A stretch of 64,000 nt of DNA, from positions 204,270-268,269 of the forward strand of contig JBAYIT010000001.1 of assembly GCA_041665485.1 (NCBI GenBank), given 5' to 3'. Source of the stretch: Candidatus Shapirobacteria bacterium. GTDB taxonomy: Bacteria; Patescibacteriota; Microgenomatia; UBA12405. The notes under the pieces are model-generated. The model was not told the origin of the DNA. It made no database searches and saw only the letters and a list, made by a program, of their open reading frames with translations. The translations under genes and the position numbers were made by a program. Positions 817 through 36,000 of this stretch are shown here, piece by piece. Each line of letters begins with the position of its first letter. The first letter of the stretch is position 1.

Positions 817-1248
817 TTATGGAGTACCTTTGGTAATATTCCAAAGAAGATAAAAGATTTGTTTTTGGGTGGTGGCGATTTGTTGATTTTTGACCTCGAC
901 GCCAAAATACTCGTGGTTAAAAATGTGGTAAAAGGCGAAAATGTCGTTATAAATATAGGTATCATGGTTGAGAGTTAGCTTGGCTTTGGGAATAAATCGG
1001 TGTTGATAAAACTTGTTAAAATAGTCCTTGTTTTTGGTAAAAGAATTGTTTTGAGTGGGGTCGTTGCTGATTTCTTTGTTAATAATTTGGCGGTTGAGAT
1101 ATTCTTGGCGTAAAAACTCGGCATATTGGAGACCAACACCTTGATTCCAATCAAGATAGCCGTAACCGACAACTTCGTTGGTGGCGGAGAGGGTGTTGTA
1201 AAGAAGTTGCTTGAGGCCATCAACCCCGCGATAATAAAGAATCTTGGT
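817..1248 (-). pseudogene. 3' (C-terminal) fragment of a trmB-family transcriptional regulator gene, separated from its 5' half by the inserted element
   Basis: A 140-codon open frame on the minus strand contains no Met codon, so the ORF track missed it. It begins right after the recombinase stop region and reads 'IQRCSPTKILYYRGVDGLKQLLYNTLSATNEVVGYGYLDWNQ…WNITKGTP*'. This resembles the C-terminal domain of TrmB-family regulators. It lines up in-frame with the N-terminal half at 8553..8909 through a shared 'ctccccc' core. Confidence 0.6.
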
Positions 1249-2782
1249 GGGGGAGCATCGTTGAATTTATTGGCTGATTTAGGAAGATGTAATACGCTTT
1301 TTTCCAGTCCAATCCGAGTTTTCCGTCTTTCCACACCAAGTTCTCACAGAAAATGTCTACCATCTCTCTTTTGTTGTGGGGTAGTGCGATCCTTAATCTT
1401 TCAGTAACGTATTTGATGTTGTCTAAAAATGCGTTCATTAGGTCGTCTAGCTCGCGTTCAATGTTTTCGCATTTAATAACAGTATTTTTTAATGACGCTT
1501 CTTTTAATTCACTATCTTTTGTTAAACTATCGTAAGCTCCTTTTGTGATCTCTCCGGAAGAAAACTTTCTTCCTATGTTAATTTGTGCTTGTTTCTCAAC
1601 AGAGATTTTTTCTCCCAACTTCCTAATTTCCGCCTTGATTTTTATTAGTTCCGGTTGATTGAGTTCAGTTACGTAACCACGACCGGCACTCCAACCCTCC
1701 TCGTCCAGTTCGATAGATCCGAATGCTTTCATCAAATCATTTTCTAAATTTGACTCTGTTACGTAGCTAGTTCGCTTGATTTCTTTACACGGAGAGTTTT
1801 TCTTTCCGCATCGATAATACGTTATACCCTTCTTGTGTGTTCCCGAAAGCCAACCTCCACATAGCCCGCATTTTATGAGTTTGTTGGAGTAAGCGTAGTC
1901 TAACAAAGTTTCTTTTGGATGTTCGTTATCAGACAATACCTCTTGGACTCGGTAAAATAATTCGGACGAGATAAGCGGCTCATATTCTCCTTTTATTCTT
2001 CCACCCTCATGATAAAAGATTCCGGTATATTGGATATCTATCAATCGATTTCGCCATGTATTTTTTGAAAACTTTCCTGTTGTTGTTTTTGAGTTATTTG
2101 ATCTTAAGCCAATATCATAAGCAAAATCGGCAATTTGTTCGAAAGTAAATTCACCAGTAGCAAACTGTTCAAAAACCCTTTTAACGAGCGGCCCGGTCAC
2201 TGAATCAACCAACCACTTTTTCTGACCTGTTGGGCCTTCTGTTTTATACCCTAAGACAGGCGGTCTTGCAGGATGCTTCATATTATTAGCTTTCGACCTC
2301 ATCCCTGCTTTAGTTCTGATTCCGGTTTCGTCACTAGATTTTTTCGACATCGCAAATTCTATTGCGACCATCAACTGATCAGATGACGAATCGGTAAACA
2401 CTTTTGACGGGGTGTAGATTCTTTTTATCAAACCACTTTGTAAAAACCACAATATCTTACCACCGTCGCCAAAGTTACGTGCCAATCGACTAATTTCAGT
2501 ACACACAATCCCATCAATTTCGCCTCTGTGATCTTCGAGAAAAGTTAACATGTCACCAAAACCATCTCGAACGTAGGCTTCATATCCTGTTTTATCATCC
2601 TTAAAGGTTTTAATAATTGGTTTTAATTGATACTGCTGTGGTGCTTTCCTTGCAAATTCTAATTGATATTCAAGCGAATTCAGTTGCTTGTGGGCTTCAC
2701 CATCCTTGTTGTCTTCCGACGATTTCCGGATATAAGCTACCACTCTATCAAACTTTTGATTATCGTCGCTTGTGGATGTCAT
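1220..2782 (-). CDS. Large serine recombinase (integrase) with an N-terminal resolvase-type catalytic domain, a recombinase domain and a Cys-rich Zn-ribbon
   Basis: The N-terminus 'VVAYIRKSSEDN…' carries the catalytic Ser and has a resolvase-like layout. The central recombinase domain is followed by 'CGLCGGW…YYRCGKK…C' (Zn ribbon) and a C-terminal coiled-coil. 520 aa. Confidence 0.8.
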   Translation of the reverse strand: MTSTSDDNQKFDRVVAYIRKSSEDNKDGEAHKQLNSLEYQLEFARKAPQQYQLKPIIKTFKDDKTGYEAYVRDGFGDMLTFLEDHRGEIDGIVCTEISRLARNFGDGGKILWFLQSGLIKRIYTPSKVFTDSSSDQLMVAIEFAMSKKSSDETGIRTKAGMRSKANNMKHPARPPVLGYKTEGPTGQKKWLVDSVTGPLVKRVFEQFATGEFTFEQIADFAYDIGLRSNNSKTTTGKFSKNTWRNRLIDIQYTGIFYHEGGRIKGEYEPLISSELFYRVQEVLSDNEHPKETLLDYAYSNKLIKCGLCGGWLSGTHKKGITYYRCGKKNSPCKEIKRTSYVTESNLENDLMKAFGSIELDEEGWSAGRGYVTELNQPELIKIKAEIRKLGEKISVEKQAQINIGRKFSSGEITKGAYDSLTKDSELKEASLKNTVIKCENIERELDDLMNAFLDNIKYVTERLRIALPHNKREMVDIFCENLVWKDGKLGLDWKKAYYIFLNQPINSTMLPHQDSLLSRG

Positions 2783-3122
2783 CGTTTACTGCTTTGTATA
2801 GCTTTCGACCAAGTAATAATAAATCTTTGGGTTTATTGACACTCCTGTCGACGAGCTTCATTACTTCTTGTAAGTCTGTCTCAACTACTCGATCCTTATG
2901 GATTTTCTCGCCTACTAATCTCTCTCTATAATAAATCCGCGCTTGTGGTTCGGTGTAAACTTTCTTGATTACTTTTACAAATCTTTTCATATCACCAAGT
3001 AGCTTGGCGATGTCAGTCTCACTCAACCCCGGATCGCGTTTTCGCAGGTAGCTTACAAACCTTTTTTGAGCCGGTGTATTGTTGTCCATATTCACGTAAC
3101 TGATTATACAATTATCGGACAC
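2760..3122 (-). CDS. Small hypothetical protein upstream of the recombinase gene, overlapping its start; possible directionality or regulatory factor
   Basis: 120-aa ORF on the same strand, overlapping the recombinase start by 23 nt (operon-like). No recognisable motif. Confidence 0.4.
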   Translation of the reverse strand: MSDNCIISYVNMDNNTPAQKRFVSYLRKRDPGLSETDIAKLLGDMKRFVKVIKKVYTEPQARIYYRERLVGEKIHKDRVVETDLQEVMKLVDRSVNKPKDLLLLGRKLYKAVNDDIHKRR

Positions 3123-3456
3123 TCGTTAATTTCCCACAAACTATTTACTTTGGTTTACTTCTTTTACAAAGGCAAAACGAGTGACATTTATTCAAGATTC
3201 AGTCCCTTAAAAAAATTTCAGAATGGCGATTTCACCCCCATCTCACCCCCATTTTACCACCAGTCTCCTGCCTGACTTTTGTTGACGAATAAAAAATCAT
3301 TTTGTCGATTTTATAACGTTTTTACTACGCTTTTTTTACCATTTGTTTGATGGAAAATTGAGTATACGAAAAATATGTAATTCTTTTTACTTTCTTTTAC
3401 CCAAATAGACAATAAAAGAGGTAGAATACGACAATAAAGATAATATAGATTTTATT

Positions 3457-6321
3457 ATGAAAAAGAATCGTTTTGAGGTAGAAAACTTCAAGTTCAAATT
3501 TTTACCAGATACTCCTCTATCTTCTACAAAAGACACTGTTATGTTTGGTCACGAGCAAGTCGCTAAAGCACTCCTCAATATCGTTGTAGGGTCAACTCCT
3601 CCTTTTACAATAGGGCTTTATGGGGGTTGGGGGTCAGGTAAGTCAACTGTCATCAATTTATTAGCAGAAGAACTGGATAACATAAACGTAAAACATGTCG
3701 TGTTTGATGTTTGGAAATATAGTGAAGATTCTCTCCGTCGCCAGTTTCTCATCGAGTCTGCAAGACAATTAGGACAAACATCCAAAGTAAAAAAACTTAC
3801 GGAAAAGTTCGTATATTCTCTTACTAAAAAAATTGAAACAATCCGGTTTACACCCAAAAAATTTATCGTAAGTATCATCCCCATTGTTTTATTCTCACTA
3901 GTTTGGAGTTGGGTAACAGGGGATATAAACCAATGGAAAAGTATCACAATTCTATGCTTAGGGGGAGCATTTATTTTTCAAAAATATCAAGACAAATTGT
4001 TGATAGTTGATGATAATGTCTTAACTAGAGATAAAATATCCCAACCGGAAGAATTCGAAAATGAATTCAAAGAGATCGTTAATGATAGTAATGAAAACAA
4101 ACTCTTGTTTATTTTTGATAATTTAGACAGGGCTCCGAGGCAAAAAGTTGTCGAACTATTAACCACAATAAAAACATTTCTAGAAATAAGGAAGTGCATA
4201 TTTCTTGTTCCTTGTGATGAAACCGCAGTAAGGAAGCACATTAGCTCTGCCCTTTTGTCAAATGACTCAAAAAAAATATCTGATCAAGATAAACAAGATT
4301 ACGCTGATGAGTTTTTGCGGAAGTTCTTTAATACAGTTGTGAGGATGCCAAAGGTCGAGTATCTAGATCTTGACGTATACACTACATCTCTGTTAAATGA
4401 TACCCAAATAGAACTTTTCAATAAAAACCCAGACTTACTCGAATTAATTACATACTCCTTTAAGAATAATCCGAGGGAGATTAAGCAATTTATTAATTCT
4501 CTGATATCGCTAATAATTATTGTTTATGAAAGATTTGATGAGAAAATAACTAAAAAATTATCCAAAAACGATATTGCATTTTTTGCAAAAGTTCTTATTC
4601 TAAAACAGAAATACCACGACATTTATACAAAGTTGGAAGAGAGCATCTTAAATGATGCCATGGATTGGACTGAAGCCGAAAAAGGAGTCTTGAGGGGAAC
4701 GTTGGAAGAGTCAATGAAGTTTTTGAAAAATACATATTACATCACTCCCGATACTCTCAATGTAGGATCATATATTACATTAAAACAGTCGAAGGAGGAG
4801 ATTTCGTTACCCGGCTGGGAACAATTTATTCAAGCGTGTTTAAGTAGAGATGTCGAATCTGCCTCTAAGTTCGTAAATTCATTCATTAAGCAAGACAAGA
4901 TTAGTATCTTTGAAAACTTTTTACTTTATTATCTAAAATCTAATAGTCAGAGACAGGCTTTAATCAGGCCAATTTCTTCAACATGTGTGAAAGTATTTTC
5001 TGATATCTTAAACACGTCTATTCCTCCTAAGGTTGCTCGTGAATTAGCACGACAGATTTCTGGCCCACTTCTTAGGCCAGACACCTACGAGGATTACCCA
5101 ATACAAAATACAATAAAAGTTGTCAAATCGGGCATTAATAAAACTCAGAACAAAGAGCTTAGTCAAGCCTACATAGGCCTTTTTAATCATGCTGATAACA
5201 ATAGCCGGCTTATACTCAAAGAAGACTATGCATTGTCCATTCTTAATCATGTTTCTACAGATATAGAGTATTTCCAATCATCAATTCGTAATGTTAAAGA
5301 TCTTTTGAAAGATAGATTAAACTCAAGAAAATATATTGAAGTGTTTATCGATAAAGATAATCTTGAAAAGTTTATTTCCAATGAAACAATAACCAACTAT
5401 ATAACAAGAAACTTTGACGCAGGAACACTCAATGACGACGATGAATTGAGAAAAAATCTTGGCCTTTTAAATACAATCGGAGAATTAGACGAAGGACAAA
5501 TAAGGTTAATAGTTGAGAAGGTTAAAGAATTAATTGCCGCAGAATCAAACAATCCACCTGATAGAAACCAGAGAGATGTTTTAATTGAGTTCTTAACAGG
5601 TTTCATTGAGAAATTCCTTGATACTATTTCTACAGCCGAAGTTGAATATGTCAGTTCAAATATCGGCGTAATTTCAACATCAGCGACAGCTTGGTATAAC
5701 AACTCTTCATGGAGCATAAAAACAAAAGTGTTTTTACTTTCTCTCATACTCCGAAAAATTGACAAAAACGATAAAAACACAACTCTAGAAAGTTCTATAA
5801 TAAAGCCGTTTATTCAAAATGCTCCATATGATGAGGCATTTTCTACTTTAGATGAAAAGGTCGTTGAGGAAATAATTTCAAAAAATTATCCAGAATATAT
5901 CAAAGGATGTATGCGGTCATATGATTTTTTTACTAAAGGTTTTAAGTATTTATCATCCGATCAAAGAGGACAAATAGCTCTATCCATGATGTCGTCAAGT
6001 TTGGAGTTCTCTGTAAATGCTATTAAGAAATCTAATTATTTGATTGGTGCATCTACTGTTAGTGTGTTAAATGAACTATTCAATCGACTTGATTCCCAAG
6101 ACGAGAACTTCAAGGCTAATGTTTTCGAAATTGCATATAAAACACATTGTGGAAAAGACCCTGCTGTGGAAGAGAGATTTTTTAATGAGTTAAAGAATGT
6201 AAAGGGAAGTGATTTTGGAGACAGGATGATAAAAAAATATGTCAAAAAGCAGGGGAGGTTGTTTAGTAAAAGTCAGAAAAGTGATTTGTTAAATGTCACG
6301 CCAATACCCGCCGCTTCCTAA
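3457..6321 (+). CDS. KAP-family P-loop NTPase, 954 aa
   Basis: Walker A 'GLYGGWGSGKST' followed by 'FDVWKY'. A hydrophobic insert sits inside the NTPase domain ('IIPIVLFSLVWSWV…ILCLGGAFIF'). Walker B 'LLFIFDNLDR'. The C-terminal region is long and weakly conserved. This architecture is typical of KAP NTPases. Confidence 0.8.
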   Translation: MKKNRFEVENFKFKFLPDTPLSSTKDTVMFGHEQVAKALLNIVVGSTPPFTIGLYGGWGSGKSTVINLLAEELDNINVKHVVFDVWKYSEDSLRRQFLIESARQLGQTSKVKKLTEKFVYSLTKKIETIRFTPKKFIVSIIPIVLFSLVWSWVTGDINQWKSITILCLGGAFIFQKYQDKLLIVDDNVLTRDKISQPEEFENEFKEIVNDSNENKLLFIFDNLDRAPRQKVVELLTTIKTFLEIRKCIFLVPCDETAVRKHISSALLSNDSKKISDQDKQDYADEFLRKFFNTVVRMPKVEYLDLDVYTTSLLNDTQIELFNKNPDLLELITYSFKNNPREIKQFINSLISLIIIVYERFDEKITKKLSKNDIAFFAKVLILKQKYHDIYTKLEESILNDAMDWTEAEKGVLRGTLEESMKFLKNTYYITPDTLNVGSYITLKQSKEEISLPGWEQFIQACLSRDVESASKFVNSFIKQDKISIFENFLLYYLKSNSQRQALIRPISSTCVKVFSDILNTSIPPKVARELARQISGPLLRPDTYEDYPIQNTIKVVKSGINKTQNKELSQAYIGLFNHADNNSRLILKEDYALSILNHVSTDIEYFQSSIRNVKDLLKDRLNSRKYIEVFIDKDNLEKFISNETITNYITRNFDAGTLNDDDELRKNLGLLNTIGELDEGQIRLIVEKVKELIAAESNNPPDRNQRDVLIEFLTGFIEKFLDTISTAEVEYVSSNIGVISTSATAWYNNSSWSIKTKVFLLSLILRKIDKNDKNTTLESSIIKPFIQNAPYDEAFSTLDEKVVEEIISKNYPEYIKGCMRSYDFFTKGFKYLSSDQRGQIALSMMSSSLEFSVNAIKKSNYLIGASTVSVLNELFNRLDSQDENFKANVFEIAYKTHCGKDPAVEERFFNELKNVKGSDFGDRMIKKYVKKQGRLFSKSQKSDLLNVTPIPAAS

Positions 6322-6344
6322 TTCTAATTGAAACGGACAGATTC

Positions 6345-6563
6345 CTAAAACGGAAATAAATCTTGGACTTTCACATTTAACGCTTTGGCTAGGCGGTATA
6401 CAGTTTTTAACGATGGTTTTCGACTACCTGCCTCAATAAATTGGATATACTTCGTACTCAACCTGACTTTTTCCGCTAGTTGATCTTGAGTAAATCCAGC
6501 CAACTTTCTATATTTTTTAATTCTTTTTCCGAGTTTTAAATCATTTTCAGTAATCATACCCAT
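6345..6563 (-). CDS. XRE-family (Cro/CI-type) helix-turn-helix transcriptional regulator
   Basis: 72 aa. 'LGKRIKKYRKLAGFTQDQLAEKVRLSTKYIQFIEAGSRKPSLKTVYRLAKAL' is the canonical HTH_XRE pattern. Confidence 0.8.
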   Translation of the reverse strand: MGMITENDLKLGKRIKKYRKLAGFTQDQLAEKVRLSTKYIQFIEAGSRKPSLKTVYRLAKALNVKVQDLFPF

Positions 6564-6574
6564 AGGGTATGGGT
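6558..6574. promoter_or_regulatory. Perfect palindrome ACCCATAgggTATGGGT overlapping the XRE start codon; candidate operator
   Basis: Inverted repeat read directly from the sequence. A second inverted repeat, AAAAACAgctTGTTTTT, lies at 6619-6635 in the same divergent intergenic region. Confidence 0.35.
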
Positions 6575-6662
6575 AATGTGATGTTGATAGAACCTACTGT
6601 GTGTATCTGTTTAGATTCAAAAACAGCTTGTTTTTACACCAACTGTCTGTTACTATTTATTT

Positions 6663-6899
6663 GTGAAAGAAGAATATGTTTGTAGGAATTGTGGTTATAT
6701 CGGTGAAGCTGATAAAAAGGTTTCAGGATCATTTTTGGTTGAGGTTTTACTTTGGTGTTTGTTTATTCTCCCCGGAATAATTTACAGTATTTCTAGGTAT
6801 GCCAAAAAAGTCTTGATTTGTCCTGAATGTGAGAAAGAAACTTTAATCCCTACTTCATCAAAAATGGGAATAAAACTCGTAAGAGACATGGGTAGGTAA
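6663..6899 (+). CDS. Small Zn-ribbon membrane protein (CxxC…CxxC with one TM helix); GTG start
   Basis: 'CRNCGY…' and 'CPECEK' flank the hydrophobic segment 'FLVEVLLWCLFILPGIIYSI'. The only in-frame start is GTG at 6663. Confidence 0.45.
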   Translation: MKEEYVCRNCGYIGEADKKVSGSFLVEVLLWCLFILPGIIYSISRYAKKVLICPECEKETLIPTSSKMGIKLVRDMGR

Positions 6900-6936
6900 T
6901 TTGGTAAAATACACTTAATCTAGACATTTAATTTCT

Positions 6937-8415
6937 ATGTTTTGGCATGATGTAACCCTAGGAACATTTGACCCGATCAATAAAGGTGTTGGATTAGATT
7001 ATCGTAATCTTTTTCATGACCCCATCTTGGTCGAAACAATTCTCGCACACGAAGGAACCCATTATGCGATTTCTGAGACAACTGAATTCGGTCAAGCTAC
7101 TCATAGCCTCTTTAAATTACAGGATTCAATAGTTAAGATTGACCCAATTGAGTATGAGAATATGTTGGGAATCATTTACAATAGCCAGATCGCAGTTCAA
7201 GAAGGTTTCGCTACTTTGATGGAATTACTAAGACGCAAATCTAAAACTTCAAAAGCAGAAACACTTAGTTGGGCTTCACAAAATTTACCACTAGAATATC
7301 AACGGTGGGTCAATCCAATGTTATTTGTACTCGATTTATCAAGTTCATATCGTGATCAATTTACAGCAAAGGTGTCTCATTTAGCTATGACCACATCAAT
7401 TAGACGAGATATTCCAAAATTAAACCTTCTTTCAGATATCAATAAATTGAGAGACTACCTTGACGAGGATGACAATAATCCAAACAAAAGACTAAACCTA
7501 CTAGTTAATACCCTAAGTTCGAGACCATGGATGTGTACAAAAGATAATAATACTTTACTTAAAGAATCAGGTTTATATGTTCGGGAATCAGTTACAAAAC
7601 CGGAAATAGCGTCATTCTTAACTTACCTTACTTCATTTACAGACAACCCATACAATTTTTCAGAAACAGACATTGGTGACCCTGTTCCTGATAGTAGAGT
7701 GTTCATAGATGCTTTTAACAATACATTTGTTGCGAATATGAATTTAGATTTCACGAAAAATGGCGTTGTTATTTATGATCATAATAAATACGTAATCGAA
7801 TCGAAAAACTTTGAGGCAATAACTGCATTTCCCAGAGAAGGTAGACCTGATTTGACAGACTACCTTAGACGAGTTTCAACAGATGAGCCTGAAGTTGATA
7901 TTATTGGTTTTACAAAAACAGGTACCAGTTTTCTCACTACTACTTCCAAGAAAAAAGCGAAAACACTTATTGAAAGTTTGGATTGTCCATTTTTTGTCAG
8001 ATATGGTGATTTTGATAATCAAAAAAATACCCTGTTTTGGATGCCAGACCTTAAGACACCAGATTTTATTGTCTATAGATATCCGGAAAACTTAAATAGA
8101 TGTTTAGGAGAAATTTTAAAAGCAAGACCAGCCCAGTCTTTTAAACATGTTCATATTGGATCATCTGAGGGGAGTCCTTTACAAACATTGATCGTAAAAT
8201 CTGAGGGTATAAAAACTTTCCATGTGGTAAACACATATGGAAATGTAAAAGTAGGGGAAATAATAAAATCAATCCAAGCACAATCAGCAATAATGAGTAA
8301 CGACGATATCAACAATCTAAAAACACCGATCAATTGTTTCTTTTCTATATGGTCGGGGATGGGATGGAAATTAGATTGGGTAGAAATACTAACTAGCCAA
8401 CAATCTGAAACTTAG
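6937..8415 (+). CDS. Hypothetical 492-aa protein with an N-terminal HExxH motif ('AHEGTHY'); possible Zn-metallopeptidase, speculatively ImmA/IrrE-like
   Basis: The HExxH motif sits near residue 38. The rest shows no recognisable similarity. Confidence 0.4.
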   Translation: MFWHDVTLGTFDPINKGVGLDYRNLFHDPILVETILAHEGTHYAISETTEFGQATHSLFKLQDSIVKIDPIEYENMLGIIYNSQIAVQEGFATLMELLRRKSKTSKAETLSWASQNLPLEYQRWVNPMLFVLDLSSSYRDQFTAKVSHLAMTTSIRRDIPKLNLLSDINKLRDYLDEDDNNPNKRLNLLVNTLSSRPWMCTKDNNTLLKESGLYVRESVTKPEIASFLTYLTSFTDNPYNFSETDIGDPVPDSRVFIDAFNNTFVANMNLDFTKNGVVIYDHNKYVIESKNFEAITAFPREGRPDLTDYLRRVSTDEPEVDIIGFTKTGTSFLTTTSKKKAKTLIESLDCPFFVRYGDFDNQKNTLFWMPDLKTPDFIVYRYPENLNRCLGEILKARPAQSFKHVHIGSSEGSPLQTLIVKSEGIKTFHVVNTYGNVKVGEIIKSIQAQSAIMSNDDINNLKTPINCFFSIWSGMGWKLDWVEILTSQQSET

Positions 8416-8552
8416 TATTCAAGTCCACTCTTGCTACTATGTTTGAGCAAAATTATGCGATAGGGGATGATTACCGAGGCAATTTACTAGAATCGAAACA
8501 TCGTACTCCGAAGCTGGAATTGGTGTAAGCAACTGTTTGATATAGTACCTTC

Positions 8553-8909
8553 TCACAGCTTCCAACCGTCGGAGGGGGAGGAACTTTCGAGTTGTTGGAG
8601 ATTGGGGAGGAGAGAGGTGAGCGATTGATGGAGAGTATTGAGTTCAATTTGTTTATTTTGAAGAACAAGTTTTAGTTTTTCTGGAGGGGAGGCGGAGTAA
8701 CGGGTGGTTTTATGGTCGAGGATTTCTTCGACGAGGCCAAGGCGGGAGAGGTGTTCAAGAAGGCGATAAAGAGTGGTGCGGTTTATTGGTAAAGAGCGGG
8801 AAAGAGAGAGGGCGGTTTGGGAGGGTGATTGGAGGAGATTAAGGTAAACTTGGGATTCTTGAGTGGTAAGCCCAAAAGCCTCTAGTTCTGATACTAAGTT
8901 GTTCATCAT
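8553..8909 (-). pseudogene. 5' (N-terminal wHTH) half of the trmB-family regulator gene disrupted by the element
   Basis: 'MMNNLVSELEAFGLTTQESQVYLNLLQSPSQTALSLSRSLPINRTTLYRLLEHLSRLGLVEEIL…' is a TrmB-type winged helix followed by a coiled-coil. The frame ends in a stop 18 nt after the 'ctccccc' junction core. The ORF-track entry 8553..9194 is an artefactual upstream extension. Confidence 0.6.
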
Positions 8910-11202: not shown

Positions 11203-11465
11203 AGGAAAATTTTGTCCTTTTAGTCCAAAATTTAACCTAAAGAAACGAAAAAGAAACAACCTTATCGATATTCTCAAAGCAGGTGGAACACGAATATGGT
11301 TGTTTCTTCACTTTCTAAAATACGGGGTTGACAGGAAAATGTCAAATCCGGGGTTCGACTATGTAGATGAGAGTGGCAGAGGGGGCAGGTCTGCCACTTT
11401 CAACTATGGAGTGGAAGGAAAGATAACTAGTTGTGGCAAATTTTTTTTGTGATTATAATGAATGT

Positions 11466-13013
11466 ATGAGAAAGACTTTTGTGGTGGTGATGGTTTTGGG
11501 AATGTTGTTTTTTGGAGTGGGAGTAAGAGGGGTAATGGCGGTGATGCCGGGTGACGCTAGTGGTAATAATGATGTGGGACTTGAGGATTTAGCGATTTGG
11601 AGAGAGGAATATGGTAAGACCGGACTTAGATCTGATTTTGATGGCAGTGGTGCGGTGGGTTTTGAGGATTTAAGAATATGGAAAATGGCTTATATAGAAA
11701 AATTGAATTCGGTGGATTGTGACAGATGTAGTGTTTTTTATGATAATCAACGGACCAGGTGGAGAGCGTCTGATTGTAATAAATCTCCTGCTTCGTGGGT
11801 GGTAGTAGAAAGGATTTATGATTCAACCTGTAGGGCACCGGCTTCGACTAAGAAAATGAATACCTGCCAGAGGTGTAGCACGGTAAATCAAGGACAGTAT
11901 GTGTGGTGGGAGATTGTGGAGGGAGAAAGTTGTAGCCGTGATCCGGGAACGGGAACCAGTGTTTATCGGGCAGAGGGGGTGACGATGTGCCAGATATCGG
12001 GACCATCCACGATTGATTGTGATCGATGTAGTCTTCTTTATGATAATCAGCGGACTAGTTGGAGAGCGACAAATTGTGATGTCTCTCCGGGGGATGGAGT
12101 AGTGGTAGAAAGAACTTATGACACGACTTGTGTGGCACCGGCTTCGACAAGAAAAGCCAATACTTGCCAAAGGTGCAGTAAAGCCGGAAATGGGCAATAC
12201 ACCTGGTGGGAGCCAGTAAGTGGAGTGGGCTGTGAAGTTGATCCGACAGGAGAGGTGATGAAGACGACAGTTGGATCGGTGACGATGTGTAATATAAATA
12301 CGTCAGAAACTTGTCCAGGTAGCTGTAAGTCTCAAACACCTCAAAAGCCGGATTGTGGATCTTACGGAATGGATAATGGGGTGGGATCATGTTCTGATCC
12401 GATGTCTAGATGTTGTGTAAATAAATGCACCCGATGTAGTCTTCTTTATGACAATCAAATGACCAGCTGGGTGGCAGACAACTGCGATCTTTCTCCGGCT
12501 TCGGGAGTGGCAGTGGAAAGAACCTATGACACGACTTGTGTGGCACCGGCTTCAACAAGAAAAGCCAATACTTGCCAAAGGTGCAGTAAAGCCGGAAATG
12601 GGCAATACACCTGGTGGGAACCAGTAAGTGGGGTGGGCTGTGAAGTTGATCCGACAGGAGAGGTGATGAAGACGACAGTTGGATCGATTGCCATGTGTAC
12701 TGAAACGGGTAGATGTGAAAGGTGCAGTACGGTTTATCCGAATCAGAAAGTGGCCTATTTGGGAGATTGTAGTAAGCCACCAATGCCGGGAATTGAGGTA
12801 GAAAGAATTTATGACATTGTTAATTGTGGATTGGGGAAATTTACGCCGACACCGGGGGTAACTGTGTGTCAGAGGTGTAGCGAGACGGTTTCGGGGCAAT
12901 ATGTGTGGTGGAAAAAGGAGGATGGCAAGACCTGTAATGATGACCCGGGGGCGGGAGTGGAGATACAAAGAACCGACCCGCGAAAGAATCGATTGGAGAA
13001 TTGTCACGGATGA
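11466..13013 (+). CDS. Secreted protein with an N-terminal pair of dockerin-like modules and four Cys-rich ~100-aa repeats
   Basis: Signal peptide 'MRKTFVVVMVLGMLFFGVGVRGVMA'. Modules 'DVGLEDLAIWREEY' and 'DFDGSGAVGFEDLRIWKMAY'. Four repeats of the form 'C(D)RCS..YDNQ.T.W.A..C..SP…VER.YD.TC.APASTKK.NTCQRCS…GQY.WWE'. Confidence 0.6.
   Translation: MRKTFVVVMVLGMLFFGVGVRGVMAVMPGDASGNNDVGLEDLAIWREEYGKTGLRSDFDGSGAVGFEDLRIWKMAYIEKLNSVDCDRCSVFYDNQRTRWRASDCNKSPASWVVVERIYDSTCRAPASTKKMNTCQRCSTVNQGQYVWWEIVEGESCSRDPGTGTSVYRAEGVTMCQISGPSTIDCDRCSLLYDNQRTSWRATNCDVSPGDGVVVERTYDTTCVAPASTRKANTCQRCSKAGNGQYTWWEPVSGVGCEVDPTGEVMKTTVGSVTMCNINTSETCPGSCKSQTPQKPDCGSYGMDNGVGSCSDPMSRCCVNKCTRCSLLYDNQMTSWVADNCDLSPASGVAVERTYDTTCVAPASTRKANTCQRCSKAGNGQYTWWEPVSGVGCEVDPTGEVMKTTVGSIAMCTETGRCERCSTVYPNQKVAYLGDCSKPPMPGIEVERIYDIVNCGLGKFTPTPGVTVCQRCSETVSGQYVWWKKEDGKTCNDDPGAGVEIQRTDPRKNRLENCHG
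12118..12693. repeat. Intragenic tandem duplication: 12118-12287 and 12524-12693 are about 98% identical
   Basis: Direct comparison of the two stretches. Both encode the identical peptide 'YDTTCVAPASTRKANTCQRCSKAGNGQYTWWEPVSGVGCEVDPTGEVMKTTVGS'. Confidence 0.8.
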
Positions 13014-27020: not shown

Positions 27021-30000
27021 TTAGTTAATGATCCACCAATTAATATCAATATTATGATCGAGGGGGTTGTCGATGGCAATGGTGAAACTAGATTTTAGAT
27101 CTTGGATGTTAGATGTTGGATCAATGTATTTGTCTTTAATATAAATGACTTGATTGTTAGTTGAGCCGACGGGGGTGAGGTAGACCATGGAAGCAGAAGT
27201 GAGTTGGTTGTTGAGGATGATGATTTCGGTTTGGCCGGCGATGAGAGTAGTGGTGCCGGCGGTAGTATTGGAAGCGATTTCCGCCGATTGGGTAGCAGAT
27301 TCACTCGGATCGGCTTGGGCGATGGCGACGTTGGGGAGGATGGTTAACTTGTTAGATCTTAGATCCTGGATGTTAGATGTTAGAGCGGTGAGAGAGGTGG
27401 TTTGAATATCGGAGGCAGTTATAAGATAGGTGGAGAGGGAACCCGAAATTGTGGCAGTTTGAGCGGTTAAGGTGCCGTTTAGATAGATATTTCCATTAAC
27501 AGTGACATCGCCGTTGTCGGCAATAATAAGAGTGTTGTTCATGATGTTAATAGTGCCAACTTTGGAGGGTTGAATGTAGAGAACCGAGGCGGTGGTTTCA
27601 ATAAGATTGTCTTTAATGATAATTTGGCCGGATTGGAGGGTGCCGGAAATTAGGGCGTCGGCCAATTCGGCTTGGCCGGCGACGGCCAACTGCCCAGCAA
27701 CAACCAGATTGTCGGTAAGAGCCAGAGAGCCGGTAATTTGAGCCGAGCCGGTGGAAATATCAGCCAGCCAGTTTTCTGATTGAGAGAGTAAGACGTCTTC
27801 TGGGGGAGTAGTAACAGTGGATGTGTCGATGATTTTCTTGACTTCGTCGCGGAGGGCGGAGATTTTTTGAGTCATCAGGTCGCCAAAGTTACCTTCACGG
27901 CTGATGATTTGATCGGCGTAGAGGATGCCACTGATGGTGGCATCTTTAGATCTTAGATCCTGGATGTTAGATGTTAGAGCGGTGATAGCGTTGGCGGAGA
28001 GAGTGGTAACACCGATGTCTTGGGCGGTGATGGTTTTGGATTTTAGATCCTGGATGTTAGATGTTAGGGAGTCAAGGTGATCGACATTAAGGCTGGGGGT
28101 TTTAATGTTTTGAGCGAAGAGAGAGCCAATAACTTCGGTGTCGCCGCCGATTTTGAGAGTAGAACCAATACCGGTGTTAGAGATTGGTGTAATAGTTTGT
28201 GTTTCGATATCATTAGATACTAATTTGGAAGTATTAATGATTCCTGCCTTTAGATTGGCAATAAGAGCTTGACTGAACTGTCCAAGACGGGTAACGGCGG
28301 AGCCGTTACTGGATGTTAGATGATAGATCTTAGATCCTGGATCTTGGATGTTAGTTTCTGGTGAAGTGACGATCTGGCCGAGGGTGTCGAGAGTAAGGAG
28401 GGTGTCGGGGTCAAACCAGCTAGGTTGGACTAAAGCGAGAATAGTGCAGTTACCCGGGTCAGAGCAGGAAGATGAGCTTTCCAGAGCTTTACCGATAATT
28501 GGCCCCGAGGTGGTGGCTTTTTGGGCACGGCCTTCGATGGTGGTAGAAGCAGTGAGCGGATCTCCAGGGCTAATAGCTCCATTTTCGAGGGTGATTTTAA
28601 CTGGCACTCGGCCGGAAAGAGCGATGGGGTAGACATTTTGGGAGGTTTCCGAAGAGCCAAGAAGAAGACCGGGATTAGTAGAAACGACACCGACGAGTTT
28701 TTGACTGCCGGCTTGGGCGCGGAGGACATGGCCAGTGTTTTCGAGATCGAAGGTAACAAGTTCGCCGGTGGAGAGATTTTGAGTAGAGGGGTAATTTTCG
28801 GCCAAATCGGCGTTGGCGGTGTCAACCGAGCCGATGTGTAAGACACTGCCATAGTTATTTTGATAATACTGTTTGAAGTACATATCGACGGCGGTATAGC
28901 TGGCGGTGTCCCAGACTGAACCGTTGTAGTAACCAGCTTGGCCTCCAGTATAGGTTGAACTACTATCTTTTTCTCTGACATTGATGTAATTTGATCCGTC
29001 TCCACCAGTGGAGGTGGTGGTAACAAGACAGTATTTGGTACCGGCTTGGAGATAGGGCTTGGTAGAGAAGGTGAGGGAATATTCGGCGCCAGGAGAAGCG
29101 GTTTCGCCAATGCTGGTGTTGGCGATATTACTCGAGGTGGCGACGACGGTTCCGTTTGGTTGGTTGCCATCGCAATTTTGGAGCTGAACAGAGAAGTTGT
29201 AGGAACCGGCACCGACTTTCCATAACTGGAGAGTAACTTTTGACAAGCTACCACTGGCTTGGGGAGTGAAACTTTGAGAAAAAAGACGAGTGCCGTAAAC
29301 AGCAAAACTATTGTTGGGGCCAGTGAAGCCTTGGTCGAGGGTTTCGGCGCCGGCAGCAGTGGAAACATCAATTCGGGCGCTGACGGAACCGTCGGATTTA
29401 TAGAAATAGAAATCATTACCACTGCCGGCCCAGAGACGAAGATCGTCAGTGCCACCTTGTTTGATGTCGCCACCGGCAACAATTAAACTACTACCAACGC
29501 TTAGACTGGTGGATAAATAACCATTGCCAACAACCTGAAGTTTGTAGGTAGGATTGGTAATGCCGATACCGACATTGCCGGTAGAATTTTGGATAAATAA
29601 TCTTGAATTTCCATCCTGATCAATATGGAAGGCGCTGGTAGTGGTTGGCTGTGACAATGTCCAAGTGCTTCGACCAGTTTCAACTAAGATAAACTTTGGC
29701 GTTGTCCCGGCAGTAGTCAAACTGTATATCGTGTTATTTGATTTAATGATGCCATTTACATCGAGGGTATAGCCTGGTGCGGTGGTACCAACACCAACAT
29801 TGCCGGTAGTGTAAAGGTTAGTAAAGCTAGCGGTGCCACCGACATTGAGAAGATAGAGAGCGTTGGTGGAGCCAATACCAAGGCGAGTAGAGATTAAGGC
29901 ATCGCCATTAACTTCTAGTTTGTAGAGGGGATTAGTTGTACCAATACCGACATTTCCGTAATTTGTTATTGTCATTGCTCTTGATAATCCAGCGCTAGCA

Positions 30001-33000
30001 TTACCTACATCGAAACCTAATGCGGAATTCACCCAGCTTGACCCTCTTTCAAATCCCCCAGTTATTCTTGATGCACTTCCAATCCAACCGGCACTACTAC
30101 CGTCATTGTTTTGAAAGACAATACTTGGGGAATATCTTCCGGGAGAGGAAGGAGAGCTGGTTAGAGTAAGTTGGGGATTATTGGCTGAGCCTGTAGTACT
30201 ATATAGGTGTAGTGAGCTTGTCGGAGCAGTTGTTCCAATACCAACATTGCCACTAGCATGAAGATTAGTAAAGCTAGCGGTGCCACCGACATTGAGAAGA
30301 TAGAGAGCGTTGGTGGAGCCAATACCAAGGCGAGTAGAGATTAAAGCATCGCCATTGACATGGAGTTTGTAGAGAGGAGCGGTGGTACCAATGCCAACAT
30401 TGCCGGTGGAATTTAGAAAAAGCTGGTTATCCCAACCGGTGATATCACCAGTGGTAGAAGTGGAAGAAGCAAGAAGTAATCCGTTACTATAGCCACGAAT
30501 TTGAGTGGCGGCGTTACTGACAATATGTCTTAGTGTACTACCAACGGCGACAGCATTAAAACGGATGGAACCACTTTGGTAGAGAGAGAGAGAACTGTCG
30601 CTAATTGAAGTAGAGTTAGATGTGTTGAAGTAGTAAGCGGTATTGCCAATGTCGACGAACTTGGTGCCAGTGATGATGCCGTTGGCGCTGATGGTGGCGG
30701 AGGAGCCAACACTTAGAGTGCCACCGATACTAAGATTGGTGGTAAAGTTGCCATTACCGATGACGTTGAGTTTAGCGGTGCTAGTAGCGCCGATGCCAAC
30801 ATTACCACCAAACATAGCATTGCCATTAATGCGTAAGTTAGCAGTTTGATCAGCGGTAAATTGATTTTGGACGAAGTCACCGGTGTTACCAATATTTAAA
30901 TAATAACTACCATGTTGGCCATCGAGGAGATCAGCACTTAGGTTGGTGACAGTGTTGGTGCTACCGACAGAGACAAAAGTACCACCGATGGTTAAGTTGG
31001 TGGTGATATTGGCAGAACCACTAACGTTGAGCTTGTAGGAAGAATTGGTTGCGCCGATTCCTAATGGTCCAAACATACTGACAGATCCGTATTTAAGATA
31101 ATCGTTGTAATTTGTAGAGAAAGCGTTGGCTTGATCGCCTTCGTAGAGCGAAACTGAATCGATCCAATCTGTATCACCGGCATGGGAAGTGCCGGTGTTG
31201 GTTAACATGAATATACTTATGGTTTTGTCGTCACCGATGGTGAAATTGGTTGACTGCCAGTGCCAGGCGTCGTCTTTAATGAGAGTTTGGTTGCCGTAGG
31301 CGACAATATAAGAGGTTCCATCATAAACACCGAGTTGAAGAGGGAGAGTGTTGGTTGAGCTAGATTTATACCAAAAGTTTAAGGTGTATTTTCTGGCCGT
31401 TGTCAGAGTGCTTCGAGGAGGGACGGTGTATTTTGCTCCTTGCCAGGCGCCACCATCAACCATTTTTAAAGAGTAGGTTGACTTATAGCCGGTGTCTCGG
31501 GAGAAGGTGCCACCATTGGATATCCAGGCGTCGGGAATGGATGAAGTGCCGATATTCCAATAATCAAAATTGCCATTGTTGATTAAATTGGCGGGAGCAT
31601 TGGTGCCGTCGCCACCAACCAGGTGCCCGGATAGATTAAGATTGCCGGAAATATCAACTTTTTGAGAGGGGGCGGTGGTGCCAAATCCGACATTGCCAGA
31701 AGAGGCGATGTATAAAGCCTGGGTGTTGGAATTGATACCTAAGAAAGAAAGGCCAAAAGAAGAAACACCAATGTTGGTGTTTTGAGTTAGTGTTCCTCCT
31801 AGTCCAACAGAACTGGTGCCGATGGATTGAAGGCCATTGGTGGCAGCAATAAAGTCATTGGCGCCATTTTTATCCCAAGCAGTAGTGTCTAAATAACCAA
31901 CTAAACCACTATTACCACTCAAGAAAGCAGCCACACTTGATCCACCAATGGCAGTATTAGAAAGGTTTAAAGAAGCAGTGGTGGTGGTGGTGCCAACACT
32001 TAAATCAGCGTTAGTGTAGATAGAAGCGGTTGAAGTTCCACCTACACCTAGTTTAGTAAAGACACCTTCACCAGTAACATGGAGCTTGTAAAGAGGATTG
32101 GTGGTGCCAAGGCCAATGTTGGTGCCGGAGTCATAGATAAGAGAGTTGGTAATGCTGACAGTGGCAGTAGTGCCAGTGAATTTAGTGAGGTAGCCGGAAA
32201 TAGGGTTGTTATCAACCAAGGCGATGTCTTTGTAGGTGGTATAGGCGGCGGTGCTACCGAAACTGCCTTGGTAAAGACGCATTCCCAAGCTAGACTTGTT
32301 AAATTCGAGGAGGTTTTGATTTCCACCTGAACCATCGAGATATGAATTAAGATGGAGGAAGTCTGCCCAAGGGCCGGCACTATTGTTGTTGTAGGCAGTA
32401 AAACCGAATTTTAGATTACTAGTGTTGACTTCAGTAGGACCTATTGAACGGTTGTCTTCCCCGTAGAGGCTAAGAGCTGGCCCACCTTCAGCGTTGGAAG
32501 TGGCGTAATTACCAGTAGTTTGAGTGCCGAGAGTAACATCTCCCCAAGAAAGATCACCATGCATAAGTTGGTTGACAGTACCGGAAGTGCCAATGAGTTG
32601 ATTGGTGGCATTGGTTCTAACCAGAGTGTTGGCGGTGACATTAGTTAGAGTAAGAGTATTACCAATAGAAAGAGTATTGCCAAAAACAGAAGCACCACTA
32701 ACACCAATGCCACCCGAGCTGATAGTTAAACCGGCAAAAAGAGGGGTAGCCCCGGTGTGGATGTTTTGAGGCAGGGAAAGGGTAACGGCTCCGGTGGGGT
32801 TGGAAGCAGTAATTTGATTAGTGGTACCAAGAATGCTGGTAACACCAATATTACTAAAGACATTGGTACTAGAAAGACTAATACCAACACCGGCGGTGTA
32901 AAGAGTGCCAGCACCACTAGTAAAAGCGCCAGCTCCTAAAACATTTTTGTATAAGTTACCAGATGAATCAATAAAAACGGCGGTGGTGCCGACGCCGGTT

Positions 33001-36000
33001 GTGCCAATTCCTAAACCAGAAAAATTAACAGTTCCGCCAACTCCCAAACTTCCAGTTCCACCGACTTGGAGAGTGTAAGAAGGGGTGGTAGTGGCAATAC
33101 CGACTTTACCGGTGGCATCGATTACTAATGCTACGCCACTTGCAAAAGTTTCAGAACCGTATCCAATCTTAAATTTGTGACTATCAGAGCCATCTCTACC
33201 AATCGACCATGAGGTACTTGTATTGGATCTAAAATTTATAACGCTATTGTTTGTAGATTTACCTTGTAAATATAGTAATGCGTTACCAGAGGCGACGTTG
33301 TCTATCATTACCCCAGAAGTCCCCACTATATCTAGGTTAACTCTTGGCCCCGTCGTTCCAATGCCAACATTGCCATTAGCCTTTAAATAAAGTGATTGAG
33401 TATTACCCGTACCCAGGAAAGAAAGATTGTAGGAAGAAAGATTAATGTTGGTGTTTTGAGTAAGTGTTCCACCTAGGCCAATAGATAGTTGATCAGTGCC
33501 AGAGATAGAAGTACCAATACCATTGTAACCAAGAATAGAAGCAGTATTACCAAGACCAATAGATTGAGCAGTACCCAGGGAACCAGCCAACATCCAACTA
33601 ACATTGGCTGATTGAGCATAACGATTATCAAGATCAACAGTGGCCAAAGAAGTGAGATGACCAAGACCATCAAGACCAATGTCTTGAATGACAATACCAT
33701 TACTGTTGTCAGAGGAAGCTTGAGAGGAAGTATCGGCGTGAGAGATAGTGGCACCAACTCCAGTACCGGTAACCACCATACTAGTTCCAGCTTGGAGATT
33801 AAGTAAACCATCAAAGGCCAGACCATTTAAAGCTCTTTTACTAACCACATTATTACTATCGATAAACAAGGCAGTGGTACCAGTACCAGCGACAGTGGAG
33901 GCACTTAAAGTTAAAGTACCACCGATGCCGACATTGGCAGAGAAAGAAGAAGTACCGGTAATACCAATACCACCACTGTTAATGAAAAGTGAATAGGTAC
34001 TATGAGTAGCTCCAACACCTAGTTTAGTAAAGACACCTTCACCAGCTACTTGGAATTTGTAGAGTGGGGCAGTGGTACCAATGCCGACATTACCAGCTGA
34101 CAAGATAGACATGGCATCTACGGGAGTGCCAGCAGTTCGAGTTCTAAAAAAGATACCGCCTAAAACAGCACTATTGTAAGTATTGTCGATATATAGGTTG
34201 GCAACACCATTACCGTTATAGTGAATGAGACCTTGGTAGGCAGCGTTGTTACCAATGGCGACCGAGCCATTATATGCTTGTGCCCCACCGATTGGATCCC
34301 AACCGTTGAACGTTGCTTGGGTGACGGAATTACTATAAACATTAAATGGACTAGTTGGATTAGTCATACCGATGCCTACATTGCCATTGGTAGTAATAGC
34401 CAGGGCTTGGGTGTTGTTATTAACACCCATGATGTAGAGATTGTTAGCACCAGTATTAATGAAAGTATTTTGAGTTAATGTTCCACCTAGACCAATAGAT
34501 AGTTGATCAGTGCCAGAGACAGAAGTACCAATACCATTGTAACCAAGAATAGAAGCGGTATTACCAATACCGACTTGTTGAGCAGTACCAGTATTGCCAG
34601 CCAACATCCAACTAATGTAAGTGTTGTCTTGAAAGGCTAATCCACCTAAAGCTCTTTTACTAACCACATTATTACTATCGATAAACAAGGCAGTGGTACC
34701 AGTACCAGCGACAGTGGAGGCACTTAAAGTTAAAGTACCACCGATGCCGACATTGGCAGTAAAAGAAGTATTGGGAGTAATGGTTAGTCCAAGTCCGGCG
34801 ATAGTAGTTAAGTAGGAAGCATTACCAAAGGTAACAGTAGCACCATTACCCATAAACAAAGGTGACTTGGCAGCAGTAGTAGCAGTAAGAGTGTTGCCAA
34901 CAGAAAGTGTGCCGGTGACACTACCATTACCAGTGACAGACAAAGAAGCGGTAGTAAGAGTGGTGCCAACAGAGAGACTGTTACCAAACACCGAAGCACC
35001 ACTAACTCCAATACCACCAGCGCTGATGGTCAATCCGGCAAAGAGAGGAGTGGAAGAAGTAGTTAGGTGTTGACCAGTGTTAAAGGCAAGTTGGCTGTCA
35101 CCAATAGAATCACCAATGATAGCCAGGGAGACACCAACTCCTTCACCGGCAGTACCAGTAACCCCAATTTGACTATTACCGATAATGGTAGAAACATAAT
35201 TACCGGCAGTTTGAGTGCCGAGAGTAACATCTCCCCAAGAAAGATCACCATGCATAAGTTGGTTGACAGTACCGGAAGTACCAATGAGTTGATTGGTGGC
35301 ATTGGTTCTAACCAGAGTGTTGGCGGTGACATTGGTTAAAGTGAGAGTGTTGCCAATAGAAAGAGTATTGCCAAAAACAGAAGCACCACTAACACCAATC
35401 CCACCCGAGCTGATAGTTAAACCGGCAAAAAGAGGGGTAGCCCCGGTGTGGATGTTTTGAGGAAGAGTTAAAGTAACAGCTCCGGTTTGAGCAGTAGCCG
35501 TAGTGCCATTGGCTAGTATTTGATTGGCAGTGCCAGTTAAAGAAAGGACACCAGTATTAGTAATGGTCAAAGCATCGGTACCGGAAATGGAAGTGCCAAT
35601 ACCACTACCAGCTAAGAAAGAAGCAGTATTACCAAGACCAATAGATTGAGCAGTACCCAGGGAACCAGCCAACATCCAACTAACATTGGCTGATTGAGCA
35701 TAACGAGAATCAAGATCAACAGTGGCTAGGGAAGTCAAATGACCAAGACCATCAAGACCAATGTCTTGGATGACAATACCATTACTATTGTCAGATGAAG
35801 CTTGAGAAGAAGTATCGGCATGAGAGATGGTGGCACCAACTCCGGTACCAGTAACCACCATACTAGTACCAGCTTGGAGATTAAGTAAACCATCAAAGGC
35901 AAGACCATTTAATGCTCTCCGACTAACAACATTATTACTATCGATAAACAAGGCAGTGGTACCAGTACCAGAGACAGTAGAGGCACTTAAAGTTAAAGTA

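Follow-up and report, generated by a model that had tools for sequence, protein, structure and literature searches.

A 7,325-bp integrative element in Candidatus Shapirobacteria carries genes for a KAP-family NTPase and a predicted metallopeptidase

Do neighboring genes for a KAP NTPase, an XRE regulator, a Zn-ribbon membrane protein and an HExxH protein in a Candidatus Shapirobacteria genome constitute one defense system, or are they independent cargo of a mobile element? Patescibacteria have tiny genomes and reportedly few recognizable defense systems, so that a bounded 7.3-kb element with a KAP NTPase is a concrete, portable candidate for phage-resistance tests in this group. We analyzed a 64,000-nt stretch of the genome (hereafter the window), in which all ORFs described by an earlier sequence-only reading were present at the positions it had given.

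The mobile element comprises 7,325 bp inserted in a trmB-like regulator gene, and its boundaries are mapped to the base. The features of its ends and of the recombinase region are listed below.

817..1248, minus strand: C-terminal fragment of the split host trmB-like gene, open frame ...PTKILYYRGVDGLKQLL...NITKGTP*
1249..1255: attL core GGGGGAG, left member of a pair of 7-nt direct repeats, from comparison of the junction regions
1220..2782, minus strand: large serine recombinase, 520 aa, with Resolvase, Recombinase and Zn_ribbon_recom domains (phrog_95 integrase, 5e-50)
2760..3122, minus strand: ORF for a 120-aa protein, with a 23-nt overlap with the start of the recombinase gene
3229..3261: three tandem 11-nt repeats, ATTTCACCCCC-like, from a repeat scan, within a 334-nt divergent intergenic region
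8553..8909, minus strand: N-terminal fragment of the split host trmB-like gene (PF01978 TrmB, 1e-14), with an in-frame junction
8574..8580: attR core, right copy of GGGGGAG, from the same comparison

GGGGGAG is the only word of at least 7 nt common to both junction regions. In silico removal of positions 1256-8580 regained one in-frame 255-aa TrmB-like ORF, in which the C-terminal frame is fused to the N-terminal fragment; in the window the final 6 codons and the stop of the latter come from the element. Base composition breaks at the same boundaries, with a GC content of 35.3% and a GC skew of -0.03 inside the element against 40-43% and +0.32 to +0.40 in the host flanks. The serine recombinase gene sits at one end of the element; its last 10 codons are host DNA past attL, and the product predicted from the circularized element is 556 aa. 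The two marks of a large-serine-recombinase integrative element, namely the recombinase domains and junctions whose removal restores the target, were both found. The repeat, the restored ORF, the composition break and the recombinase domains together confirm the earlier claim that a mobile element carries the cargo genes. The recombinase would move the element, with the trmB-like regulator gene as its target.

The 120-aa gene is probably co-transcribed with the recombinase gene. Its product matched no significant family in Pfam, PADLOC, NCBIfam or PHROGs and had no similarity to the small recombinase-adjacent proteins in the same position in two other loci (L006 and L018). The 11-nt repeats possibly serve as a binding site for a regulator. 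An Rfam scan of the element detected no RNA family. Since promoter and terminator scans gave counts not above those of shuffled controls, operon structure is deduced here from spacing and orientation alone.

The largest cargo gene encodes a KAP-family NTPase with the following features.

3457..6321, plus strand: KAP-family P-loop NTPase, 954 aa (PF07693 KAP_NTPase)
~3622-3645, plus strand: Walker A motif GGWGSGKS, residues about 56-63
3847-3972, plus strand: hydrophobic insert, from hydropathy
~4114-4131, plus strand: Walker B motif FDNLDR, residues 220-225
~4804-6291, plus strand: alpha-solenoid, from the structure model

PF07693 matched residues 34-349 (E 3.3e-28; 99.2 bits, cut-off 20), and G53, W58, G59, G61, K62, D221, N222, D224 and R225 are invariant among 36 homologs. 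The hydropathy profile contains a stretch at residues 131-157 and a shorter one at ~161-172, both located after Walker A and before Walker B. All 36 aligned homologs have a comparable insert; in our protein its second segment is short, about 12 residues. The domain match, the Walker motifs and the hydropathy thus agree with the earlier description of a 954-aa KAP NTPase with a hydrophobic insert in the NTPase domain. The structure model is confident and all-helical in the C-terminal half, where ~500 residues are predicted to form a HEAT/importin-like solenoid.

The NTPase domain also matched the PADLOC models of QatA (7.6e-20) and PifA (1.8e-10), as well as PDC-S20. PifA of the F plasmid and QatA of QatABCD share with our protein the KAP NTPase domain and a location on mobile elements or in defense islands, but the alignment is limited to the N-terminal NTPase part, and PifA was reported to have no TM helices (PMC13001434). 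The QatA equivalog model NF041923 of NCBIfam scored 92.4 bits, far below its cut-off of 600 bits, with residues 29-319 alone aligned. PADLOC identified no QatB, QatC (QueC-like) or QatD (TatD-like) among the neighbors, which are instead the XRE, Zn-ribbon and HExxH genes.

The KAP model is structurally similar to RdrA of RADAR. The RdrB adenosine deaminase partner is absent, and no gene of the element encodes a deaminase. Unlike our protein with its predicted membrane hairpin inside the NTPase domain, RdrA and the STAND/NLR-type NTPases belong to families that lack such a hairpin; the KAP protein, for its part, has no fused effector domain. The predicted two-helix membrane insertion within the P-loop domain is shared with Tmn of the YobI family, a single-gene defense with a membrane-level output (PMC13001434). 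Tmn, however, belongs to another NTPase family, is devoid of long accessory repeat domains and acts by a decameric Mg2+-export mechanism that is not known from any KAP protein.

The closest precedent is EF_KAP and its relatives (PMC13552941), stand-alone KAP fusions that were shown by experiment in 2026 to be anti-phage, with Walker B and the C-terminal region being required. They resemble the present gene in consisting of a single gene, in carrying a TM segment inside the KAP NTPase domain, in having a long C-terminal region of no known domain and in adjoining a serine recombinase gene. In our case, a large rather than a small serine recombinase moves a discrete 7.3-kb element, a HEAT/importin-like solenoid is predicted for the C-terminal region of ~600 aa, the host belongs to Patescibacteria, and the anti-phage role is a prediction.

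We found six loci of full-length KAP homologs, which have no constant neighbor. Four of them (L005, L006, L007 and L054) lie within serine-recombinase or DUF5659 elements, one (L055) is flanked by an OLD-family nuclease gene and a methyltransferase+ResIII pair, and one (L056) by C5-methylase/Vsr and NERD genes. In plasmids and viral contigs there was no full-length relative, the alignment being confined to the NTPase domain. The matches to QatA, PDC-S20 and PifA, the neighborhoods with restriction-modification, nuclease and serine recombinase genes and the experimental precedent (PMC13552941) make an anti-phage role, as suggested in the sequence-only reading, plausible. The KAP NTPase is probably a stand-alone anti-phage protein; the class of stand-alone KAP defense proteins, validated only recently, would then include a new phylum and a C-terminal region of the solenoid type.

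Downstream of the KAP gene, the window contains the following features.

6345..6563, minus strand: XRE-family HTH regulator, 72 aa (HTH_3, E 2.8e-17)
6557..6575: perfect 8+3+8 palindrome TACCCATAgggTATGGGTA, overlapping the XRE start codon
~6620-6636: second, AT-rich inverted repeat, 7+3+7, read from the sequence
6663..6899, plus strand: Zn-ribbon membrane protein, 78 aa (two CxxC motifs, hydropathy)
6937..8415, plus strand: HExxH protein, 492 aa, with HEGTH at 7048-7062 and an invariant QEG at 7198-7206

Transcription of the XRE gene runs toward the KAP gene and away from the Zn-ribbon gene. The HTH_3 match and the two inverted repeats support the earlier assignment of an XRE repressor with palindromic operator candidates, and the palindrome TACCCATAgggTATGGGTA is a candidate operator. 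XRE genes with 42-47% identity were found in both KAP-bearing and HExxH-bearing elements. The 78-aa ORF was likewise described correctly as a CxxC…CxxC single-TM protein: CxxC is located at residues 7-10 and 53-56 on either side of a hydrophobic stretch (19-46), which has Pro-Gly in its center. Weak matches were obtained to zf-LITAF-like (E 0.022) and to Pmp3 (5.8e-5 over 24 residues). The former, at 15.3 bits, is below the cut-off of 23.8 for the LITAF-like zinc ribbon (PF10601), and the likeness of the layout was judged by inspection only. Only one homolog was retrieved from 5.8 billion proteins.

In the 492-aa protein, an N-terminal HExxH had been noted as the only recognizable feature, and indeed no significant match was found in Pfam, PADLOC, NCBIfam or PHROGs. 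HEGTH occupies residues 38-42, and all 10 homologs compared retain H38, E39 and H42. The family comprises about 85 unannotated clusters of ~495 aa, mostly from Patescibacteria, and 2 of 10 members showed a faint SprT-like match (E 0.023). The structure model is confident and gave zincin fold matches; in it the N-terminal domain appears gluzincin-like. A Foldseek comparison with the PDB gave no match at E ≤ 0.001, and a profile search of PDB sequences returned nothing. It differs from the clan MA gluzincins (M1, M4 thermolysin, M3 and M32) in that by sequence it falls in no Pfam peptidase family, in the spacing of 46 residues to a putative third ligand and in its C-terminal alpha/beta domains, which are unrelated to theirs. 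We predict that it is a cytoplasmic gluzincin-like metallopeptidase, presumably with protease activity.

The sequence-only reading had proposed that the KAP, Zn-ribbon and HExxH proteins form one multi-gene system, and had itself named the failure of the three to co-occur elsewhere as grounds for rejecting it. No HExxH homolog was found in the six full-length or in 10 distant KAP loci, and neither a KAP nor a Zn-ribbon homolog in 40 HExxH loci; the latter absence is weaker evidence because many of these loci are short contigs, about 20 having at least 3 kb on at least one side. As the genes do not travel together elsewhere, they are separate cargo rather than one defense system. It is therefore very improbable that the three act together under XRE, with KAP as sensor or effector and the HExxH protein as a protease effector. 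The genes are adjacent on a small element, three of them on one strand, and KAP and HExxH homologs have similar neighborhoods elsewhere, such as methyltransferase+ResIII pairs, as such a system might lead one to expect. In the window, however, the oppositely oriented XRE gene parts the KAP gene from the Zn-ribbon and HExxH genes, and the Zn-ribbon protein with its single homolog cannot be a conserved system component.

We instead favor, with a probability of about 0.6, the explanation that two or more independent modules make up the cargo of the integrative element. The first module would be the KAP NTPase alone, held at the membrane by the hydrophobic hairpin between Walker A and Walker B. 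Its solenoid might act as the sensor that binds a component of a phage or other invader; binding would lead to nucleotide-dependent assembly at the membrane, and the assembly would disturb the membrane or ion balance and block the invader. This proposed mechanism is modeled on PifA and on Tmn, a related TM-inserted NTPase. Against it, the solenoid has no recognizable effector, which makes the output step conjecture, and the second hydrophobic segment of the hairpin is short. The second module would be the divergent pair of XRE and the Zn-ribbon and HExxH genes, in which the palindromes of the intervening region probably allow XRE to repress both its own promoter and the operon opposite. The zinc metallopeptidase family represented by the HExxH protein would be new and largely confined to Patescibacteria, where serine-recombinase and conjugative elements carry it as an accessory gene alongside nuclease and restriction-modification genes. 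The locus is ordinary mobile-element cargo of modest novelty: current views are not overturned, and the attractive multi-gene system is absent here.

An ImmA/IrrE-style derepression switch had also been suggested. In such a switch, the metalloprotease would cleave XRE on a signal of stress or infection and so turn on excision by the recombinase or cargo expression. As in ImmA/IrrE (Peptidase_M78, COG2856), an integrative element carries a gene for an HExxH metallopeptidase and, close to it, one for an XRE-family repressor; the motif is invariant, XRE is divergent from the HExxH-containing operon with palindromes between, and related XRE genes occur in five HExxH-bearing elements (L003, L012, L015, L023 and L043). 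But the protein is 2-3 times larger than usual with extra domains, Peptidase_M78 was matched neither by the window protein at E ≤ 0.1 nor by 10 members at E ≤ 5, and the pairing is inconsistent across the family: in about 6 of ~28 distinct loci an XRE gene lies within a few kb of the HExxH gene, and in 2 of them the genes are neighbors. These results do not support membership of the protein in the ImmA/IrrE family, and a switch of this kind is quite unlikely.

Another, also unlikely, explanation for the second half of the cargo is a small XRE-controlled conflict module in which the ~495-aa HExxH zincin is the constant part and its neighbor a swappable effector, here the small LITAF-like membrane protein and elsewhere a ~300-aa protein with a putative PD-(D/E)xK-like motif. 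If true, such modules would be a new type of defense or counter-defense in bacteria with few known systems of this sort. In three lineages (L003/L042 and L011/L040/L041), the ~300-aa partner lies immediately upstream of the HExxH gene and in the same orientation; L001 has a 337-aa gene with a 4-nt overlap with the HExxH gene, and HNH_5 and SNase genes adjoin it in further loci. However, the effector-like partners were recognized by eye, from SIR2-like GAGAS and PD-(D/E)xK-like motifs for which searches of Pfam, PADLOC and PDB sequences gave nothing, and many HExxH loci have no obvious partner. The XRE/Zn-ribbon/downstream-gene arrangement recurs once, as the sole other Zn-ribbon homolog also has a divergent XRE neighbor; the gene 3′ of it is truncated and is not among the HExxH homologs recovered, which argues weakly against a fixed pair.

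Under the favored explanation of independent modules, the HExxH protein most likely has a conflict function, either defense or counter-defense. The family had no relatives in IMG/VR viral contigs, GenBank phages or PLSDB plasmids. Three loci come from MAGs labeled Gammaproteobacteria and a fourth belongs to a Pedobacter MAG, so the restriction to Patescibacteria is not absolute unless these contigs were mis-binned. With about 85 clusters, no annotation and a confident model, the family is a reasonable target in the search for new protease functions associated with mobile elements. Its neighbors across the 40 loci are variable: a serine recombinase gene is near in at least 10 distinct loci, and others have T4SS genes (L004), methyltransferase+ResIII pairs (L008 and L043) or SNF2-Mrr (L012).

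GC skew on the plus strand is unusually high in the host DNA of the window, at +0.3 to +0.5 per kb, and GC content there is 40-48%; from ~1.2 kb to 8.6 kb the GC content is 33-35% and the skew is close to zero. The host skew is independent of gene orientation. The trmB gene, encoded on the minus strand, likewise has a G-rich plus strand. On the minus strand, the DNA flanking the element encodes the two halves of one gene:

8553-8909, minus strand: TrmB-type HTH N-terminal half of the split host gene
817-1248, minus strand: continuing open frame of the split host gene

The only word of at least 7 nt common to both junctions is GGGGGAG (1249-1255 and 8574-8580). In silico removal of the 7,325 bp yielded one in-frame 255-aa ORF with a TrmB domain; the predicted empty site reads ...CAACTCGAAAGTTCCTCCCCCACCAAGATTCTTTATTAT... 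on the minus strand, and excision is predicted to bring 8573 next to 1256 at the attP junction of the circle. The left end of the element encodes a large serine recombinase with Resolvase, Recombinase and Zn_ribbon_recom domains. Its ORF extends 30 nt past the left junction, the last 10 codons being host sequence (window 1220-1255), and thus integration alters the recombinase C-terminus: the protein has 520 aa in the integrated form and a predicted 556 aa, with a different and longer tail, in the circular form. The shared heptamer, the restored ORF, the break in skew and GC content and the recombinase bear out the sequence-only reading that the cargo rides on a mobile element.

All ORFs listed in that reading for the cargo region exist:

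2760-3122, minus strand: 120-aa ORF
3457-6321, plus strand: 954-aa ORF, KAP NTPase (Pfam KAP_NTPase, E 3.3e-28, well over the cut-off)
6345-6563, minus strand: 72-aa ORF, XRE/HTH_3 regulator
6663-6899, plus strand: 78-aa ORF, Zn-ribbon protein with two CxxC pairs around one hydrophobic stretch
6937-8415, plus strand: 492-aa ORF, HExxH protein (HEGTH at residues 38-42)

The 120-aa protein has no assigned function, and together with the recombinase these genes are the complete content of the element, which lacks genes for replication, transfer or virions. It is an ordinary serine-recombinase island, though very cleanly bounded. An 8+3+8 palindrome without mismatches overlaps the start codon of the XRE gene. 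Between the divergent recombinase operon and KAP gene, the intergenic DNA contains three tandem 11-nt repeats at 3229-3261 (ATTTCACCCCC, ATCTCACCCCC and ATTTTACCACC) and two copies of GACAATAAA within 3408-3438, which may be regulator or iteron-like sites.

The KAP, Zn-ribbon and HExxH proteins had been proposed to form one defence system. We searched 40 loci encoding HExxH homologues, about 28 of them distinct, with the proteins of the window; none of the 40 encodes a KAP or Zn-ribbon homologue, and no HExxH homologue occurs in any of the KAP loci. The trio thus shares none of the loci searched, and the proposal of a single system fails the co-occurrence test set out with it; KAP and HExxH genes were found together nowhere but in the window. 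The neighbours of the HExxH genes vary, with serine recombinases in at least 10 distinct loci, T4SS genes in L004, methyltransferase and ResIII pairs in L008 and L043, an SNF2-Mrr fusion in L012, and HNH_5 and SNase/Excalibur genes in several loci. DUF5659 and XRE gene families are common to KAP-bearing and HExxH-bearing elements, which indicates that KAP and HExxH genes are alternative cargo from one pool of Patescibacteria serine-recombinase elements. Serine-recombinase elements with either cargo repeatedly contain the small DUF5659 gene (L005, L006, L007, L008, L012, L018 and L054), which is absent from the element in the window; the recurrence of this gene suggests a shared backbone of a Patescibacteria integrative element family. 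The MAGs of four HExxH loci (L012, L014, L016 and L015) are labelled Gammaproteobacteria or Pedobacter rather than Patescibacteria; possible reasons are mis-binning and genuine transfer out of the phylum.

The KAP NTPase domain matches the PADLOC models QatA, PDC-S20 and PifA. The full-length KAP subfamily numbers more than 576 proteins. Across 36 full-length homologues (24-37% identity), the Walker A and Walker B residues are invariant, and a hydrophobic insert of ~25-60 residues lies between these motifs in all 36; its second hydrophobic segment is short in the protein of the window. An AlphaFold model built from the alignment of these homologues was confident (mean pLDDT 84). It contains an NTPase core and a beta-stalk of low confidence on which the hydrophobic helices sit, and its C-terminal half (about residues 450-945) is entirely helical. 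The model was likened to ORC/Cdc6, TnsC and STAND/NLR proteins, and its C-terminal half was grouped with solenoids of the importin-beta, CRM1 and CAND1 type; no enzymatic effector domain is visible in it. No neighbour is constant across six loci encoding full-length KAP homologues. Four of them (L005, L006, L007 and L054) are small elements that contain a serine recombinase, a DUF5659 gene or both, and often an XRE gene; the KAP gene of L055 lies between an OLD-family nuclease gene and a methyltransferase and ResIII pair, and that of L056 is flanked by C5-methylase/Vsr and NERD genes.

Single-gene KAP NTPases with uncharacterised C-terminal fusions guard Enterococcus from phages, adjoin small serine recombinases, and require Walker B and the C-terminal region for protection (PMC13552941, 2026). 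Tmn, a related NTPase with a TM insertion, is described as sensing phage proteins, turning over ATP and acting at the membrane, and PifA is summarised as a cause of membrane leakage (preprint, PMC13001434). Given these precedents and neighbourhoods without a constant partner, the KAP gene probably encodes a stand-alone, membrane-anchored sensor NTPase with an anti-phage role, for which we infer the sensing and output steps. Its description as defence-type cargo holds, by association and published precedent, and the gene belongs to a kind now experimentally established. These findings would not surprise a specialist; the element is useful as a portable test case for defence in Patescibacteria.

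The HExxH protein has no match in Pfam, PADLOC, NCBIfam or PHROGs. Nine relatives, each of 495-499 aa and 30-38% identical, were all that a word-indexed search returned. An exhaustive profile search gave 179 cluster representatives at E <= 0.001, of which 85 reached E <= 1e-30; with more distant proteins the likeness is limited to the N-terminal 30-200 region. H38, E39, H42, FGQ 51-53 and QEG 88-90 are invariant in 10 homologues from this unannotated family. The structural model is confident (pLDDT 85, pTM 0.81), and neither Foldseek against the PDB nor a profile search of PDB sequences gave a match. The protein contains no hydrophobic segment and no signal-like N-terminus. It is best described as a predicted gluzincin-like metallopeptidase of the cytoplasm, from a family without prior description, and points to an uncharacterised family of predicted proteases.

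The alternative that the XRE and HExxH genes form an ImmA/IrrE-style switch fails on family membership, since none of 10 family members matches Peptidase_M78 even at E <= 5, and pairing with XRE genes is inconsistent. Cleavage of a repressor by the HExxH protein, functionally analogous to ImmA/IrrE, is unlikely. A more interesting reading, also of low probability, is that the HExxH protein is the constant partner in small modules with swappable neighbours. An unannotated ~300-aa family with the motif HPDIS...D.REY.IECKR, encoded in three lineages immediately upstream of the HExxH gene and in the same direction, is a candidate and may be its dedicated partner:

L003, 106-774: ~300-aa upstream family
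L011, 2482-3342: ~300-aa upstream family
L041, 204-1103: ~300-aa upstream family
L042, 965-1867: ~300-aa upstream family

The effector-like nature of HExxH neighbours was read by eye from motifs, and searches gave no confirmation. In L001, a 337-aa gene (2272-3285) and the gene for the HExxH homologue have a 4-nt overlap, and the VILGAGAS at the start of the 337-aa product resembles SIR2-type proteins; no HMM or PDB sequence match was obtained for this likeness.

Among 5.8 billion proteins, the only homologue of the Zn-ribbon protein is 74% identical to it. On the 913-nt contig encoding this homologue (JGI sample 3300075153), the Zn-ribbon gene is again divergent from an XRE gene and lies upstream of a co-directional truncated gene; no such fragment is among the nine HExxH relatives from the word-indexed search. 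As the divergent layout is repeated there, the XRE and Zn-ribbon genes look like a real pair.

Elsewhere in the window, a single giant ORF of 4,833 aa (27021-41522, minus strand) covers the stretch at 33-38 kb in which the otherwise strong plus-strand skew falls to about zero. A 526-aa Cys-rich protein (11433-13013, plus strand) has about four internal repeats (C.RCS..YDNQ.T.W.A..C...) after a signal-like hydrophobic N-terminus.
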